A stretch of DNA of 64,000 bases, from positions 43,154,001 to 43,218,000 of the forward strand of contig NC_087436.1 of the NCBI RefSeq assembly GCF_036321535.1. The letters run 5' to 3'. Below, piece by piece: positions 6,878 through 61,300 of the stretch. The DNA is from Camelus dromedarius. Taxonomy: Eukaryota. How positions within the stretch are numbered: position 1 is the stretch's first letter; each line of letters opens with the position of its first letter. Both the position numbers and the translations under genes were made by a program. The notes under the pieces are model-generated. The model saw only the letters and a list, made by a program, of their open reading frames with translations. It did no database searches and was not told the origin of the DNA.

Positions 6878-6980
6878 CTGGTGACTGGGGATCACAACTG
6901 TGTCGTCGATCATGGCACTGTCCCTCAGGTAAGAGGCATGGCTCAGGGTGTGAGACCTGTCGGAACTGAAGGATCGAAGG
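6878..6980 (-). CDS. ANK2: ANK2 exon (~25), 103 nt, (S)[34 protein letters not shown]
   Basis: Acceptor cctaccAG, donor CAG|gtatgt, phase 2/0. Confidence 0.96.
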
Positions 6981-8707: not shown

Positions 8708-10320
8708 CTGAGGATGGAAAGAGGATTAAATTAACGGGGAAAGGGGTCTTTGATCTCAGCAAAAGCTCTTCTCAATCGGCGGACTGAACATTTTTTTTTC
8801 CTGCTTTAAACCACAAAGATAGCTAAGGTTCACTTCTATGTGTTTTATACCAGACAGCATTAGATCAACAGCTCCTAAATTCTAATATCCTTTATTTAGT
8901 GTTGAACTAAGCCAAGAGAAAACAGTAGAGGGGTCAACCTCTTGAAATAATATGGCTGTCTATGGGCTCAAACATTTTCCTCCATCAAGTTCTACTGGGC
9001 TCAGATTTGTTAATTACATAATCTCTATCCATGGCTTTAAACTTCAAAGATCCAGACTGTGAATTTACACATGCAAAATGTTAGATTTATATGAATGAAT
9101 GCACAAAAGCAGCAAGAGGCACTGGGATGCAGGATTAAAAATGCCTGCTCATAACAGCAAGAGAAGACTTAGTCACTAGGTAGATTTAGTTTACTGCCTT
9201 CTAAAATGCTAAATGTTATTTAATCAATTGCTCTTTTTTCTATGATGTCATAGAATCTACTTAAGTGAAATAAATGAAGTTAGACTATTCCAAGAGTAAA
9301 AAATGATTCTTTCTGAAGGAGTAATGACCAGCACAAAGGTCTAGAATAATTCAAGTCTCTGGATCAGAAACTGTCTAATTTTAAAACCCCAATTTAAACT
9401 GTCTAATTTAAAACCCTGATTTAAAACATTGCAAACAAGTTTAAATAGTTCACAATAGAGTTTCCATTTTTTTTCATTAAGTTAGAGGTGGTGCTGTTCA
9501 GTTAATAAATTTGCAATAACACGTATCCACAGAAGTGTAAAAATTTACTTGCTGTCCAGCTAAGGAATGTGCCAATACTTTGTTACCATCTTAAATTTAT
9601 ACTTTTTTTCACCGTATTACAACTGCTTTATGGACATACATTAGGTGGTATCAAAGTCTGTAGTTCTACTGTATTACCGCTAAGATGGTAATAATTACCA
9701 TTTTAGTAAGCTGCAATATTTATAAGACATTCAATTAATAGTCTTTCAAACTTACTGGACAAGTGAATATGCAAAACCTTCAATGTGTTTACTTTAACAC
9801 ATAGAAAAACTTCTGTGGTTCACTGTTAGGCTTTTGCGTTGAATTTGAATAGCATTTTTAATTTGTAAACAATAATAAAATAAAATGGACACAAAATCTA
9901 GCTAACCAGAACTTGGTTTTGTTTCTGCTCAATGTAATTAAAATTTAACTATTTTTATTCTTCTGTATCCATGTACATTTTAGGTATCAGAATCACCTGT
10001 CATCTCCAACTATACAGAGGCTTATTAGGTTCCTTTGAGGGAAGCCACGCTAATGTTTCATCAACCACAAGGTGGAGCTGTGACAGATAAAGCAAAGTCA
10101 GGCCTGGGACATACCACAGACTTTATTCTAGTAAAACATTTACCCTTCTAGCTCAAAAAGTTATTCAGTTTAATACATAAAAATCACAATTTAAGAATAA
10201 ATCCATAATTCTAGAACATAAGCACCCCCTGCCAACACACACACACACACACTGAGCAGTGAGCAGGGAAATGTGAATGTATCCAGGAAGGGTCATGTTT
10301 TCATGCCATGTAGTACCTAC

Positions 10321-12503: not shown

Positions 12504-12648
12504 CTGTCAGAGCGTCCGCCCTCCAAGCTGTAACGCAGGTAATTCATACCATCCAGGAACTGACTGCTGGGTAGAGAGTCATCACCCAGTTCTTTTAGAT
12601 CCTCGGGTCTAAGGTATTCTCCCCCATCACCTGTCATTGTGTCATCAC
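12504..12648 (-). CDS. ANK2: ANK2 exon (~24), 145 nt, (G)[47 protein letters not shown](S)
   Basis: Acceptor ttatttcaAG, donor CAG|gtattc, phase 1/2. Confidence 0.97.
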
Positions 12649-20989: not shown

Positions 20990-21062
20990 CCTCTTCATCA
21001 GAAACATCAAGAACCTCAGTCATGGTCTCAGGAACATTTAGCTTGTGTTTTTCAGTGATGGT
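20990..21062 (-). CDS. ANK2: ANK2 exon (~23), 73 nt, [24 protein letters not shown](G)
   Basis: Acceptor tgtctttccAG, donor GG|gtaaga, phase 0/1; the acceptor is tandemly duplicated (see findings). Confidence 0.96.
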
Positions 21063-21124
21063 CTGGAAAGACAAAAATCATTAATGCTCGTGATAGTCTG
21101 GAAAGATAAAAATCATTAATGCTC
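21055..21124. repeat. 35-bp tandem duplication (2 copies, 2 mismatches) spanning the exon ~23 acceptor
   Basis: gtgatggtctggaaagacaaaaatcattaatgctc / gtgatagtctggaaagataaaaatcattaatgctc. Confidence 0.97.
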
Positions 21125-21684
21125 AACTTAAAAACAAAAGTCAAACAAAAGATCAAAAGAATCAGCAAAGAGGTCATAGTCAATATGAGCACTCCATCTT
21201 CTACACATGTACATCTTGGAAGCTTAGTCTCTTATTCTCCTTTATGGAAACACATTTGTTCTTTCTGAAGATAAATGATCATTTACTCCAGTGAAGTCAT
21301 ACAAGAGAGAATTCATTAGTTTGAGTTCCCATTTGAAAAATAAATTATTTAGCAATGGCATTAATAGTCATGTTGAGAAAGCAAATTAATATCAGGGCTT
21401 CCTTAAACTGAACCAAGTAATATCTCCAGGAAAGCTTTAATAAGAATCAGTGAACATATGCAATTTATTAAAAACAAAGCTATTGGAAGGAGGTTGTAAA
21501 CAATGTGAAAGACAAACTATTTGGGCAGAAAATGTGATGCATCTCTTCTGGGATTAGAGGATCAACAGTGCAGAATCAATCATCCTTACAGTCTTTCACT
21601 GGGCTACAGTTCTAGCTTGTTGCTTATTTGCCTTTCACAATAGGACTCCAGAGTTGTCAAATCCCCTGCCTTCCATTCTGATGT

Positions 21685-22049: not shown

Positions 22050-22716
22050 GCACATACATCCAGAGGAAACTCTAATTTGAAAAGATACATGCACCCCAAT
22101 GTTCATAGCAGCACTATATACACACAATAGCCAAGACATGGAAGCAACCTAAATGTCCACTGACAGGTGATTGGATAAAGAAGTAGCATATACATTTACA
22201 CAACGGAATTACTACTCAGCCATAAAAAAGAATGAAATAATGCCATTTGCAGCAACATGGATAGATGTAGAGATTGTCATACTAAGTGAAGTAAATCAGA
22301 AAAAGAAAGAAAAACACCACATGCTATCACTTATATGTGGAATCTAAAAAAAAAAAGATACAAATGAAGTTATTTACAAAACAGAAACAGACTCACAGAC
22401 ATAGAACACAAACCTAAGGTTACCAGGGGGGAAGGAAGGGGAAGAGAGAAACTGGGAGTTCAGGATATGCAGATACTAACTACTATATATAAAACAGATA
22501 AACAACAAGGTCCTACTGTGTGTACAGGGAACTATATTTAATATCTCATAATAACCTATAATCAAATGGAATATGAAAAAGAATATATATATTTACACAT
22601 ATGCATAACTGAATCACTGTGCTGGGCTGTATACCAGAAACTAATACAACATTGTAAATCAATTGTACTTCAATTAAAAAAAAAGATGCAAGTTACGGTT
22701 CAAAAGGAAAAAAAAT
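22050..22716 (+). mobile_element. 5'-truncated LINE-1 3' end inserted in an L2 fragment
   Basis: gatacatgcaccccaatgttcatagcagcact...; probable TSD gaaacatt(g/c)tga at 22035-22046 and 22717-22728. Confidence 0.9.
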
Positions 22717-24366: not shown

Positions 24367-27300
24367 TCCTGTATCATGACAGTACAGAGATTGCAGAAAA
24401 ATAACTTACTTTAAAAATACAGGATAGAGACAATGACAGCCTATTAAACTATGACTCTGGGGGGAACTTATAAAATAAATATGTAAGCATGAATAAAATG
24501 ATTAAAAATGTTAAGGGATATCTACTGTATTAGGCTACACCAGAAAGTCCTTTTTTGCAGAAATGTTTTAGAGTATTTGCCCTTCATAGGAAACATTTCC
24601 ACAAGAGGATGCTTCTCTATTTGAAAATAATTGATGGAAATACTCTTTAAATGATTAAGTTATACTGCCTGACATTCTCAGTTTCTATTTGCAGATGCTT
24701 ATAATAGGACTACATTTCCTCTGAACTTGTGAGAGTGGAAATAACTTTGCTTTAGTTTGGTCACTGAATGGTACCAAAGTTATCAGCAAATATATGTGGC
24801 AACAGAAAAAGTAACACACTGATCATATTGGTCATGGATTTTTGGGGTAAAGATAATAAAAATGATTTCTATATACAATGTAGTAAATATAGTATTCATT
24901 TGTATGTGACGTAGTGCTTGATCTTTAAAAGCTCAACAACAAATATTTGTTGAATAGATAATAAATAAGTCTTCCTATTACTCATGACTAATGTTGTAAG
25001 AAATGAATACATACTGTCCCTTTAAATAAAGTGTCCTTTGAAAACCTGATTAGCAAAACATAAATATGGCTTTATGCAACTGCCTCTGAATAGCCCATAG
25101 GAAACAAGGATATAACTAAATGATCATGGGCATCTCCTTCTGTGTATAATCTCAGAGTCTATGGTCAAGATAAAACTGCTTTAAAAGTTAAAATGAGTAG
25201 TGCACGATGCATAAGTTTAATAGTATGTAATTAAATCATATAATGTAGCAAAAAAAAAAACAAATAGAATATGATAGATGGTAGACTATAATTTGTTTTT
25301 ACATCTTTCATGATGTAGCAAATAAAACATGAGTCCTTAACATGTTGTTTAATAAGTAGGGGATAATATCCACTTTCTTTTGTGCAAAAGAAGAAGTGCG
25401 CTTTACTGCCCTTCATTTTACTCTTCCCCCGATCAACCATGAACCACATCCTCAGCAAGTCCCCGCATGACAAGTGCCCCTGGCTGGGATGCCACCTTCC
25501 AATGCCCACACACACTGGCTCCTATCACAGCCACACGTAAAACCTGGTTTTGTTCCCACATCTGTTATACCAATTGTACACATTAACATAATTTTTGTAT
25601 ATCAGTTCAGTATTATGTAAATAATATTTTTCTATCAGAACTAAAGTAAGTGGCCTGAAAAGTCTCAACAAAGGTGAGTCACCAAAAAATGACTGCTACT
25701 CAGGTGTAGTGGAGATAATTATAGCAGATTGGGAAAAAAAGACGTCAAAAGTTTAAAAGGTTCTGCACTCAGTCTATTGTCTCTTAAAGACAATACACAG
25801 GATAAATATTAGATAGATACAGATATTATAGGATACATACACATACAATATAGGATGTATTATTATGTTCTTTGCACAAGAATGACAGCTTAGTCTGCTA
25901 GTCAACAGATCTCTATTCAAAGAAAACATCTCACCTCAAAAGGTGTACACTTTACGTGTATCTACTGCATTGCCATTTTTATGACTCCCATTTTAACTGA
26001 CATGGCAGAAGATAAGATTTATGACCAAAGTATACATAATAATGTAAATATAATGTCACTTTAATTTTAGCAGCTTACCCGGTAATTAATGTTCTACATC
26101 TCAACGATTATATGCAACATATAACACAATCACTTTAAATCTCTGCAAATAATGGATGACAGCAGGTCAATAAGTAGATGGATGAGTCCTATCTCACAGT
26201 TCTTCCAAACTACATTAGGACATGGAGCTTGTTGGCTCCTGTTGCCAGTAATGTGTCCCTCCCACCCTAATGTCCATTCTGGCAAACAGACAATGACTAT
26301 AATCTCTGGAGAATGCTCAACTGTCTCATAGCCCCTGCTGGGTCTTACAAAGTAAAGTTGGAAAAGCAAAGGTTAAGGAAACAAACCATGATTCCAAAAT
26401 GTCTCAGAAATTTCTGAAGCAGTGGCTTTTCCTTTACCAACTGCTGCCTTACTCTCCTCCCCACACAATGACTTTATTCATACTCTGGAAGGAGGGAGAG
26501 CAAAGGAAACTTTCTTTGATGGCTGAGAACTCACACAGCTGCTCAAAGGGCACATCGTAGGAAGCCAATGATGTGAGATTCGTCTGTTAGATGTGTGGCT
26601 GTAGTTCAACCATTACTTTTAAATGGAAGTAACAGTAAATTTAATTTTATTAATTTACATAATTATCAAATTGCCTCATGCTCTTCGCTTCCCACCAGGG
26701 AGTAGTTCCAAATTATTTTTAGTGAAGCTGTAGACTTTAGAAAATGATGTTGAATCTGATGCTCCCATGAAAATCAATAAAGGACACGTCTTAAGTGAGT
26801 TTTTTGAAGTTGAAAGTTAGGTGAAAACATCTCTTTCACAAAATTCCTGTTAAGCTACTTTTAACAAAGCCAAGATCAGTTATGGCAGAGTGGTTAAGAA
26901 CATGGACTTTGGACTCTGACAACCTAAATTTGAATCCTAGATCTCCCCTCAAAGTCTGGCATATTTGTAATGACTACATATTAATTATACTTTTAATATC
27001 ATCAGTATGTGGGAAAAGAATGATGAAAATCTCTTCTGAAAGAGAGGCTGTGCAAAGTAAGAAGCCTCACATCCCAGACAGGAGTAAGTTCAGATATCCA
27101 GTCCTTAACCCCAAATTTCACTTCACAAAACAATAAAACTCACAATTCTAAGAGAAGCAGAAAGTAAAGACTGGGCAGCATCAAAACATGTAACCAATAA
27201 ATCTACCCATTTCAATAAAGGGGGAACTTGTTTAGTTAAGATGGGCCATGATTTCTTATTATCCCAACTGAAAACAGACACGCTATTATGTTTTCTATTT

Positions 27301-28884: not shown

Positions 28885-29010
28885 GGGGGTTGGGATAGAG
28901 GTATAGCACAGTGATAGGGTGTGTGCCCAGCATGCATGAGGCCCAAGGTCTGGGGTTCAATCCCCAGTACCTCCACCACCAACAACAGCAAAAAAGAAAC
29001 TAGCAACAAA
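28885..29010 (+). mobile_element. tRNA-derived SINE (Vic-1-like), diverged
   Basis: ggtatagcacagtg...gcatgcatgagg...ggttcaatccccagtacctcca then A-rich tail. Confidence 0.8.
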
Positions 29011-29565: not shown

Positions 29566-29664
29566 CGTGGTGGTGGTGGTGACCTCCTCGGTTACAACCT
29601 TCAGGGTGTCCACCACGGAGATGTAGCCCAGACGCTTAGCAATCGCCAAGGCAGTGTTGCCATT
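29566..29664 (-). CDS. ANK2: ANK2 exon (~22), 99 nt, [33 protein letters not shown] (last ANK repeat)
   Basis: Acceptor ctctcccttcAG, donor ACG|gtaagt. Confidence 0.97.
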
Positions 29665-41469: not shown

Positions 41470-41920
41470 TTAAATACCTGGAGATGGTTTTCATAGATCC
41501 CTTTAGTCTTCCCTTTTCCAGGCTAAATTTCCCATTCTTTCAACTATTCCTGACAGAAGCTCTATTTCTGGACCTCTCTCCATTAAGGACGACCTGTTCT
41601 GGACTGATTCTAGTTTGTCAATATAGCTCTTGAATTGTGCTGCCTAGAACTGAATGCTCTACTTCAGATATGGTTTTAGTTGCACAGAATAAAATGGAAT
41701 TATTTATATGATCTTGGTTTTTTTTTAATTAATTAATTTATTTATTTTTGTTTGGTTTTTCATGTGGGAGGCAATTAGGTTGTTTTTTTTTTTAACGGAG
41801 GTACTGAGGATTGAACCCAGGACCTTGTGCATGCTAAGCACACACCCTACCACTGAGCTATACCCTCCCTCCTCTATGATCTTGTTATAACACTCCTACT
41901 AATATGCTTCTGGTTGGATT
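41470..41920 (-). mobile_element. CR1/L3 fragment interrupted by a SINE
   Basis: cttttccaggctaaa...ctagtttgtcaat...tgtgctgcctagaactgaatgctctacttcagatatggt resembles antisense L3 RT-region sequence. Confidence 0.6.
41717..41874 (-). mobile_element. tRNA-derived SINE (Vic-1-like) inserted in a CR1/L3 fragment
   Basis: Reverse complement of gggtatagctcagtggtag...gggttcaatcc; TSD tatgatcttg at 41707-41716 and 41875-41884. Confidence 0.9.
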
Positions 41921-45100: not shown

Positions 45101-46440
45101 AAGCTAGAACACTCCCTTACACCATATACAAAAATCAACTCAAAATGGATCAAAGACTTAAACATAAGACAAGATACAATAAACCTCCTAGAGGAAAACA
45201 TAGGCAAAACATTATCTGACATACATTTCAAAAATTTTCTCCTAGAAGAAATAAAAGCAAGAATAAACAAATGGGACCTAATGAAACTTACAAGCTTCTG
45301 CACAGCAAAGGAAACCAGAAGTAAAACAAGAAGACAACCTAGGGAATGGGAGAAAATTTTTGCAAATGAAACCAACAAAAGCTTGATCTCCAGAATATAT
45401 AAGCAGCTCATATGACTCAATAAGAAAAAAATAAACAACCCAATCCAAAAATGGGCAGAAGACCTAAACAAGCAATTCTCCAAGGAAGACATACAAATGA
45501 TCAAAAGGCACATGAAAAAATGCTCAATATAACTAATTATCAGAGAAATGCAAATCAAAACTACAATGAGGTATCACCTCACACCAGTCAGAATGGCCGT
45601 CATTCAAAAATCCACAAATGGCAAATGCTGGAGAGGCTGTGGAGAAAGGGGAACCCTCCTACACTGCTGGTGGGAATGCAGTTTGGTGCAGCCACTATGG
45701 AAAACAGTGTGGAGATTCCTCAAAAGACTAGGAATAGACTTACCATATGACCCAGGAATCCCACTCCTGGGCTTGTATCCAGAAGGAACCCTACTTTAGG
45801 ATGACACCTGCACCCCAATGTTCATAGCAGCACTATTTACAATAGCCAAAACATGGAAACAGCCTAAATGTCCATCAACAGGTGACTGGATAAAGAAGAG
45901 GTGGTATATTTAAACAATGGAATACTACTCAGCCATAAAAACTGACAACATAATGCCATTTGCAGCAACATGGATGCTCCTGGAGAATGTCATTTTAAGT
46001 GAAGTAAGCCAGAAAGAGAAAGAAAAATACCATATGAGATCGCTCATATGTGGAATCTAAAAAACAAAAACAAAAACAAACAAACAAACAAAAACAAAGC
46101 GTAAATACAGGACAGAAATAGACTCATAGACAGAGAATACAGACTTGTGGTTGCCAGGGTGGTGGAGGGTGGGAAGGGATAGACTGGGATTTCAAAACTG
46201 TAGAATAGATAAACAAGATTACACTGTATAGCACAGGGAAATATACACAAAATGTTACGATAACTCAGAGAAAAAAATGTGACAATGAGTGTGTATATGT
46301 CCATGAATGACTGAAAAAATGTGCTGAACACTGGAATTTGACACAACATTGTAAAGTGATTATAAGTCAATAAAAAATGTTAAAAAAAATAAATAAAAAC
46401 AAAAAAACAAACAAAAACAAAAAAACAAACAAAAAAAACC
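45101..46440 (+). mobile_element. 5'-truncated, relatively young LINE-1 (ORF2 C-terminus, 3'UTR, A-rich tail)
   Basis: [23 protein letters not shown]...[17 protein letters not shown]...[19 protein letters not shown] (ORF2 Cys-rich domain), in-frame stops, AATAAA and A/C tail. Confidence 0.95.
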
Positions 46441-50748: not shown

Positions 50749-52390
50749 CTACAACTCAAGTCAAGTGAGAAGTTAGTGCCAGGACAGACCAAACTTCACT
50801 GGTAAGACATCTCACTCAGACATTTCACCATGTCTTCTTAGAATCTCTGGGAAACCCTACCCAAAAGGAAATCATTGCTGCTCCAAACACAATTAATTTT
50901 ATCTCTTCTTGTAGAATGACCTGCTTGGTCACAAAATCTTCCTTAGATTTTTTAAGAGTATGCACTTCCATGAACTTGCTCATTGTTTCCTAGGCATACC
51001 AAAATGTCTCTCAGCTCATTAAGGCTTCAGTTCTCACTTATGTTTAAATATAAACTAGCCCATGGTGCTGAATAAGAAAGAAGTCTAGTCCAGAAGTCCT
51101 AAGACCTAGATTCTCATCCAGAAGCTTTCACTAAGAGACAGTATTTACTCTGGGAACTGTATCAAGAGAAGAAGAATCAAGGATGCTGGGAAGACTTCGT
51201 TCTTACTGCACTCAGCTATCCAGTGGTGGAAATTGCTAGTATTTCCTGCAGGGACAGACTGTGGATAAAGAAGATATTGTAATTTGATTTAAAAAGATGT
51301 TATTCCAGGAAATGTTGCAGACAAGTCTGGGACTTGCATCCAGGACTTCAAAGATGAAATGGGAGTCCAGCAAGAAGCAAACAGTGTGGAGTCTTTGCCA
51401 AATTCTTTTCATTTAAAAACAGGGGGAGGAGACAGCTGGTATAAGGGGCAGGGAGGACATGCTTGAGGAGGCTTGAGAAATCACCCAACCCTAGTGTGTG
51501 GTCAGGAAAATGTTTTCAGTGTTAAGAAAACCAGGCCAAACCATCCTCTTGTAAACAGAAAATTGTCTGTAACCTTAGTGATGAAAAGAGGTATATCTTT
51601 ATAATCTGCCCAGGGGGATGTCATAACAAAGGTGAGGAAGGAAAAGCTAGGCCAGTGTCCAGGGCTAAGAATGAATGGAGAAGACAGAACAGTGTAAGGA
51701 AGAGCTGTTCAAATAAATCCAGCATCTTAAAATTATAAGGAAAAGAGTCTTAAGACGGAGCTACAGGAAGAGATGAAACAGCACTGTATGCATTTCAGGG
51801 AGGTAAGAACTAGATAATAATAGTAATAATATAGTAACAATATAATTATTTTAGTAACAGAACTGGAATTTTAGAAACATTTGCACTTTATAAACTTCCT
51901 TATAACAGAACCTATCCTTATAATGGACCTGAAAGGAAGATATAAAATATATTATTCAACCATTTTTTTAGAGAAAGGAAATTAAGAGGAATTAAATGAG
52001 TTCTCCAGGATTGTCCAAAGTCACTCAGGTATTCAAACAGGACTTGAATTCAGGCATTGGATTCTAAAGACACATCTTTGTCTATACATCCAATATATTA
52101 GTGACAAAACTAACAGGACAAGGGTACTCTCAATAGGCAAGGAGACTGATGACACTTTATAAGATACAACTTTCTCTGAAATATACAGGAGAAAAGAGAG
52201 GAATGGAGAGAATTAACAGTTACAAAAATAAATGGATAGTAAAACAAACAATAACCATCAAAAGACCAAAGAACTTGAGAATAGCTATCATGAACATCTG
52301 TTGTTTTAGGGTTTCCCTTCTTGGACTTCTGCCCAGCTGAATTTGATTGAGGTTGGTATTGCAACTGACACACTCTAAGATGTGTTTTCA

Positions 52391-52971
52391 ACTCTAATTT
52401 GAAAAGATACATGCATCCCAATGTTCACAGCAGCACTATTTACAATAGCCAAGACATGGAAGTAACCTAAGTGCCCATAGACAGATGACTAGATAAAGAA
52501 GTTCTGGTATATATACAAGGGAATACTAATCAGCCATAAAAAAGAATTAAACAATGCCGTTTGCAGCAACATTGATGGATCTAGAAATTAACACTAAGTG
52601 TTAATTACTAAGTTACTAAGTGTTAAGTAAGCCACACAGTGAAAGGCAAATATCATGTCCCTTATATGTGGAATCTAAAAAATGATTCAAATGAACTTAT
52701 TTACAAAACAGAAACAGACTCACAGACATAGAAAACAAATTTATGGTTACCAAAAGGGAAAGAGGGGAGAAGGGATAAATTAGGAGTTTGGGGTTAGCAG
52801 ATACTGTATAGCACAGGGAACTACATTCAGTATCTTGTAATAACCTACAATGAAAAAGAATATGGAAAAGAAAATATGTATGTATAACTGAATCACTATG
52901 CTGTACACCAGAAACTAACACAACATTGTAAATCAACTATACTTCAATAAAAAATAAATAAAAAAAATAAA
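52391..52971 (+). mobile_element. 5'-truncated LINE-1 3' end, same subfamily as the 22050 copy
   Basis: Alignable by eye to 22070-22680; TSD atgtgttttca at 52380-52390 and 52972-52982. Confidence 0.92.
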
Positions 52972-61147: not shown

Positions 61148-61300
61148 GGGGGAAGGTATAGCTCAGTGGTAGAGTGCTTGCCTAGCATGTACAAGGTCCT
61201 GGGTTCAATCCCCAGTACCTTCATTAAAATAAGTAAATAAATAAACCTAATTACCCCTGAAAATTTTTTTTTAAAAGTGTAGATCTCAATTTAAAAAAAG
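61148..61300 (+). mobile_element. tRNA-derived SINE (Vic-1-like)
   Basis: Same head with A and B boxes and the same aacctaattacc 3' motif as the other copies. Confidence 0.88.

Follow-up and report, generated by a model that had tools for sequence, protein, structure and literature searches.

A 35-bp tandem duplication of a complete 3' splice site at the AI-c exon of ANK2 in a camelid genome assembly

Duplicated 3' splice sites and their closest known counterparts

Tandem duplications that cross an intron–exon boundary are a known class. A clinical example is USH2A c.3812-3_3837dup, in which the acceptor AG and the start of the exon are copied and use of the first copy leads to a premature stop; the portion of PMC11311777 concerned with this variant puts exon skipping at 60.9% and use of the upstream site at 1.8%. 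The experimental counterparts are the substrates of Reed and Maniatis, in which a complete 3' splice site is followed in tandem by a second, near-identical one and which are described in parts of both PMC5389562 and PMC9225289. A further class, treated in the sections of PMC9225289 on "first-step" alternative 3' splice sites, consists of sites at least 20 nt apart, each with its own tract and branch point, that have been observed in transcripts. The SCN1A poison exon 20N, as outlined in the part of the literature drawn on here, shows how a splicing choice can lead to a premature stop in a dosage-sensitive neuronal gene. Finally, the false heterotype duplications covered in part of PMC9516828 place two copies with slight differences next to each other in a haploid assembly.

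The locus considered here lies in a window of 64,000 nucleotides (the whole stretch of DNA that was analysed), in which the following features on the minus strand make up the duplicated region:

21055 to 21124, minus strand: two head-to-tail copies of a 35-bp unit, 33/35 identical
21090 to 21124, minus strand: upstream copy, 27 nt of acceptor sequence followed by 8 exon-like nt, with its AG at 21098-99
21055 to 21089, minus strand: downstream copy, the same elements with the in-frame acceptor and the first 8 exon nt, with its AG at 21063-64
21125 to 21190, minus strand: U-rich tract of 66 nt, 55% T and 70% pyrimidine, in which further branch-point-like motifs occur

TRF describes the unit as having a period of 35 and 2.0 copies, with 94% matches, no indels and a score of 126. 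A branch-point-like A at -19, a pyrimidine tract, a CAG and 8 exon bases are all present in both copies, and the U-rich tract precedes the upstream copy only. The copies differ at two positions, both by transitions: the first is A/G (transcript strand) at 21107/21072, which is acceptor position -10, and the second is T/C at 21095/21060, which is exon position +3 and leaves a Thr codon in both. A scan for two-copy tandem repeats (period 20–200, at most 10% mismatch) gave two matches in the 64 kb, namely this unit and a simple CT-rich repeat, the unit being the only complex two-copy repeat within the window; when the window was shuffled, no two-copy tandem repeat of period 20–60 appeared in any of 10 shuffles. 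The repeat is no chance match, and the duplication is confirmed in the assembled sequence. The initial annotation had described a 35-bp duplication of the whole 3' splice site, and its sequence, coordinates and translation proved to be as given there, as did the anatomy of both acceptors (branch-point motif, tract, CAG and 8 exon nt).

No exact microhomology was found at either breakpoint of the unit, and slippage at microhomology was dropped as its origin for this reason. The bases just outside the unit (window positions 21125 and 21054, minus strand) do form a near-microhomology, with TGA at both ends, one base out of register. A 36-bp slippage product minus one base would give such ends, and chance is an equally likely source; a 36-bp version of the unit would also introduce an in-frame stop. 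Among the other repeats in the window, a 27-bp AT-rich unit at 9368-9425 (about 2.1 copies, 90% matches, with an internal period of 13–14 bp) lies in the intron that separates the last two exons mapped. A short interspersed repeat is present in three copies (28899-28975, 41797-41864 and 61154-61223), and there are three related longer repeat fragments, 72–81% alike (22058-22684, 45777-46194 and 52390-52958); these copies and fragments are ordinary mobile-element remains, and the family of the three short copies is among the grounds for taking the genome as a camelid's.

Judged from its sequence alone, the locus resembles the duplicated-3'-splice-site substrates and the clinical boundary duplications, and it is not filed as an alternative acceptor or poison event. 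Its head-to-tail copies, each with an AG and the start of an exon, place it among the boundary-spanning tandem duplications. The USH2A unit, as given in the cited portion of that study, comprises 3 intronic and 26 exonic nt, such that its second AG has no tract, whereas the ANK2 unit includes 27 intronic nt, both of its AGs have a branch-point motif and a tract, and its copies have diverged. The shortest Reed and Maniatis construct has an exon piece of 14 nt after the upstream site as against 8 nt in ANK2, and these substrates, in the same partial descriptions, had short introns and were spliced in vitro, whereas the ANK2 exon is a genomic one between introns of 8.5 and 8.3 kb. The spacing of 35 nt, the separate tracts and branch points and the long introns are shared with the first-step sites of PMC9225289, although the latter were seen in transcripts in the sections cited and the upstream ANK2 site is a predicted one. 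Likewise, SCN1A 20N is described as evolutionarily conserved and its inclusion has been observed, whereas the ANK2 site is a local duplicate, predicted from sequence and absent at two distant orthologous loci. In contrast to the 35-bp unit, which has no gap, the false heterotype duplications in the cited part of PMC9516828 are usually long and gap-separated.

The ANK2 gene and the products of the two acceptors

Fourteen exons, all with AG and GT ends, lie between 63029 and 6878 of the window on its minus strand. Joining them via the downstream AG (21063-64) yields an uninterrupted frame of 536 codons, and the gene is therefore intact. The features around the duplication are these:

29566 to 29664, minus strand: preceding exon, 99 nt, encoding the last ANK repeat and matching Ankyrin-2 at 33/33 residues; donor GTAAGT
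20990 to 21062, minus strand: affected exon, 73 nt, about exon 23, donor GTAAGA, AnkB residues 826-850 (human numbering)
12504 to 12648, minus strand: following exon, 145 nt, 8.3 kb downstream of the affected exon
20990 to 21097, minus strand: hypothetical extended exon, 108 nt, computed for use of the upstream AG
21038 to 21040, minus strand: premature stop codon TAA of the extended exon; distance to the end of this exon 48 nt, to the following junction 193 nt

The last-ANK-repeat exon (33/33) and the affected exon (24/24) are identical to Ankyrin-2 in PDB 5Y4F and 4RLV. Ankyrin-1 chains gave far lower scores than Ankyrin-2 for both exons, and Ankyrin-3 was absent among the matches for these two exons. 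These protein matches identify the gene as ANK2 (ankyrin-B), the identity already given in the initial annotation. A count that makes the affected exon number 23 needs one further exon, which we take to lie between it and the exon 27 region; with this exon added, the earlier label of exon ~23 fits the placing of c.3007 in ANK2 exon 27 in the relevant part of PMC11877552. The autoinhibitory segment AI-c was mapped to AnkB 828-852, with Asn834, Met839, Leu843 and Asp847 as anchors, in the sections of PMC5779224 on autoinhibition. Since N834, M839, L843 and D847 fit the affected exon at AnkB 826-850, this exon is read as encoding nearly all of AI-c. The gene is dosage-sensitive: the part of PMC11877552 that treats this subject has ANK2 as haploinsufficient in people, with loss of function under strong selection.

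With the downstream AG, the exon has its normal 73 nt (21062-20990) and the frame stays open. Use of the upstream AG at 21098-99 adds 35 nt and shifts the frame; the 19 protein letters that result (not shown) run up to the TAA at 21040-21038, and in human numbering the change is p.Glu829Serfs*17. Both outcomes were computed as the initial annotation had claimed. Skipping of the 73-nt exon also shifts the frame, giving four new residues and then a stop. A separate observation is that the three linker exons (20990-21062, 12504-12648 and 6878-6980, minus strand) add up to 73 + 145 + 103 = 321 nt, such that the frame is kept only if all three are skipped jointly; such joint skipping, which is hypothetical, would delete AI-c and AI-b in frame.

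Nonsense-mediated decay (NMD) follows a distance rule, by which the stop lies more than 50–55 nt upstream of a later junction. The premature stop falls short of this distance for the adjacent junction alone (48 nt) and exceeds it for the next one, at the 3' end of the 145-nt exon (193 nt). The message made with the upstream AG is therefore a predicted NMD target, and the two distances support the NMD outcome that had been proposed for it.

If this message were to escape, the truncated product would be an ANK-repeat domain that is no longer inhibited, which raises the possibility of a stable ankyrin-B of 844 residues that has all the ANK repeats, that lacks AI-c, AI-b, the spectrin-binding module and the tail, and that competes for targets. 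The sections of PMC5779224 on these constructs lend this idea some appeal, as the no-linker MBD construct (28-827) stops almost exactly where the frameshift falls, at residue 829, and as AnkB goes to the membrane once the linker is deleted; moreover, no more than 48 nt separate the stop from the nearest junction. The further junction at 193 nt nevertheless makes NMD the expected fate. The earlier proposal of a protein ending just past the ANK repeats thus fared poorly, because its message is a predicted NMD target, and we regard it as extremely improbable.

Assembly artefact, age and tolerance

An important question is whether the animal itself has the duplication. One possible explanation is an assembly artefact: a 35-bp overlap of contig ends or of haplotypes, left unmerged owing to the two differences, would have been written in tandem, and the animal would have one acceptor and two ordinary variants. 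The presence of exactly 2.0 copies without microhomology at either breakpoint is in keeping with this, mismatches could keep an overlap unmerged, and selection should remove a second, equally good acceptor from a haploinsufficient gene. Heterotype duplications are, moreover, the main class of false duplications in the cited part of PMC9516828, some of them joined by wrong gap filling. In that same part, false duplicates are most often gap-separated, and the window has 0 N in 64,000 bases, although a filled gap would leave none. The false duplications cited are also far longer than 35 bp, and there is no other such duplicate within the 64 kb, so such duplicates are not rife in the assembly. Two heterozygous sites per 35 bp are expected in 0.03–0.5% of cases (for an assumed heterozygosity of 0.0007–0.003). 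The artefact is the less likely reading because two heterozygous sites per 35 bp are rare and because there is no N gap; we consider it unlikely, and the duplication probably real. The initial annotation had taken the mismatches as an argument against an assembly slip. This argument survives in part: unmerged haplotypes would differ as well, but two heterozygous sites within 35 bp would be rare.

In public sequencing runs, the region or part of it was found in 20/24, and at least half of the sampled words in 17/24. The best DNA runs had 0.96–0.97 of the sampled words and none had 1.0; such word shares are too coarse for a 35-bp copy, and the lack of a share of 1.0 is compatible with an artefact without discriminating between the readings. 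A 59-residue open frame across both copies gave no candidate in a protein search in either its one-copy or its two-copy form, a result that is uninformative. No published report of an ANK2 acceptor duplication in camelids was among the matches listed, although a supplementary variant table could hold one.

The ancestral state was addressed with a scan of metagenome contigs for the exon motif, which gave two loci (L001 and L002); these are ankyrin-2-like genes of distant vertebrates, their introns are short, and neither is camelid. A single acceptor is present at the same boundary in 2/2 of these loci, a sample from outside the mammals. As judged from these two distant vertebrate loci, the boundary is old and a single acceptor is the ancestral state. 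The two loci (L001:1467-1547 and L002:714-794) are probably two fish paralogues from host DNA.

Two changes per 35 bp correspond to about 11–29 My at assumed rates of 1–2.5e-9, with a very wide interval of 1.4–103 My, which suggests an age of the order of 10–30 My for the duplication, if it is real. Another possibility is a rare, recent and damaging allele, that is, a partial loss-of-function haplotype, in which the two differences would come from repair synthesis or from the other haplotype. Acceptors of equal strength do predict real damage, and human boundary duplications are disease alleles, as with USH2A c.3812-3_3837dup in the portion of PMC11311777 cited above. Two copy differences would, however, be unexpected in a young duplication, and the strong selection on ANK2 loss of function reported in the part of PMC11877552 already referred to is a further objection; such an allele appears very improbable. 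An old copy in a haploinsufficient gene would, in contrast, have to be a tolerated one, which in turn implies either that the downstream AG is dominant or that the loss is small.

Nevertheless, tolerance is not guaranteed. The equal strength of the acceptors, the poor splicing of duplicated sites in vitro and the exon skipping in USH2A make tolerance uncertain, and the artefact reading gains weight accordingly.

Competition between the acceptors and its possible meaning

The two acceptors are alike in having a pyrimidine fraction of 0.69, an AG-free zone of 26 nt and a yUnAy-type branch-point motif at -19. They are 35 nt apart, each with its own tract and branch-point motif, which places them beyond the 20-nt spacing of the first-step class. 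A crude matrix based on the 13 other acceptors in the window scored the upstream site at 9.3 and the downstream site at 5.3, in a noisy scale on which true acceptors range from -1.8 to 12.3; the noise was too large, and this small matrix was discarded as a ranking of the two. RNA folding gave a predicted accessibility of 0.55–0.62 for the upstream site versus 0.31–0.40 for the downstream one, and the downstream copy with the exon folds worse than shuffles (z = +1.59, with 189/200 shuffles as good). The idea that RNA structure selects the downstream site was rejected on these two results. The sequence gives the downstream site no advantage; the results on the acceptor sequences run against the dominance of the downstream site or stay neutral.

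Among the 538 AGs of the preceding intron, the same crude matrix gave the top score (15.7) to a decoy acceptor at 26453-26484 (minus strand), with a donor-like GTAAGG 32 nt on, making a candidate cryptic exon of 32 nt. Its inclusion would shift the frame into the same premature stop at 21040-21038.

Published work on competing acceptors points both ways. The exon lies between introns of 8.5 kb (before) and 8.3 kb (after) and is therefore expected to be exon-defined. According to the relevant sections of PMC9225289, exon definition favours the site that is closer across the exon and the bias for the upstream 3' splice site is significantly reduced, although an overall preference for the upstream site remains for acceptors at least 20 nt apart. 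In the part of PMC5389562 on duplicated sites, a duplicated beta-globin 3' splice site was spliced inefficiently in vitro and at the distal site only, and another duplicated, strong 3' splice site was spliced poorly in vitro through double occupancy.

The explanation that we favour, and to which we would give about an even chance, is that of a tolerated, boundary-spanning duplication, with a dominant downstream AG and a small, unregulated leak to NMD. In this explanation, a single event would have duplicated 35 bp in tandem across the intron–exon boundary without any regulatory role, each copy becoming a complete 3' splice site with its own branch point. Exon definition would give most of the splicing to the downstream AG, which lies nearer to the donor of the exon and has true exon sequence behind it; whenever the upstream AG was used or the 73-nt exon skipped, the message would be frameshifted and cleared by NMD at a small cost in ANK2 output. 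The grounds for this explanation are the lack of an N gap, the intact frame of 536 codons, the two transitions, the commonness of this type of indel (in the part of PMC3638132 on the subject, local tandem duplications are common among short indels), the bias that comes from exon definition, and the distal splicing of beta-globin.

A regulated poison acceptor, the idea of the initial annotation, is a different possibility: with the duplication fixed in a camelid lineage, the upstream AG would be used at a meaningful, tissue-dependent rate and NMD would lower the dosage of ANK2. The upstream site does have every core element and a matrix score at least as good as that of its neighbour, the additional U-rich tract in front of it is a putative target for splicing regulators, and the premature stop satisfies the NMD distance rule by way of the next-but-one junction. 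Nevertheless, the second acceptor appears not to be deeply conserved, with one acceptor at the two distant ankyrin-2-like loci (from outside the mammals), and there is no reason why a newly arisen duplication should be regulated. Moreover, a random 35-bp unit would cover one of the 14 acceptors in the same way in about 0.3% of placements, so a genome-wide scan would meet such cases without selection for function. For these reasons a regulated acceptor seems quite improbable. So does the related proposal of a camelid-lineage splice switch before the AI-c exon, by which tissue-dependent splicing would give either a lower dosage via NMD or an ANK-repeat-only AnkB without the three autoinhibitory segments; we put it forward as a speculation with little chance of being right.

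As an artefact, the duplication would amount to a minor assembly error, with a risk of misleading both annotation and variant calling in ANK2. If it is real and fixed, the locus would be a natural duplicated-3'-splice-site experiment in an exon-defined, dosage-sensitive gene, and the competition in vivo between two near-identical acceptors would bear on how clinical acceptor duplications are to be read. Were the upstream site regulated, the locus would record when a poison acceptor was born; and were the camelid splice switch true, it would have arisen in one step in a haploinsufficient gene of heart and brain.
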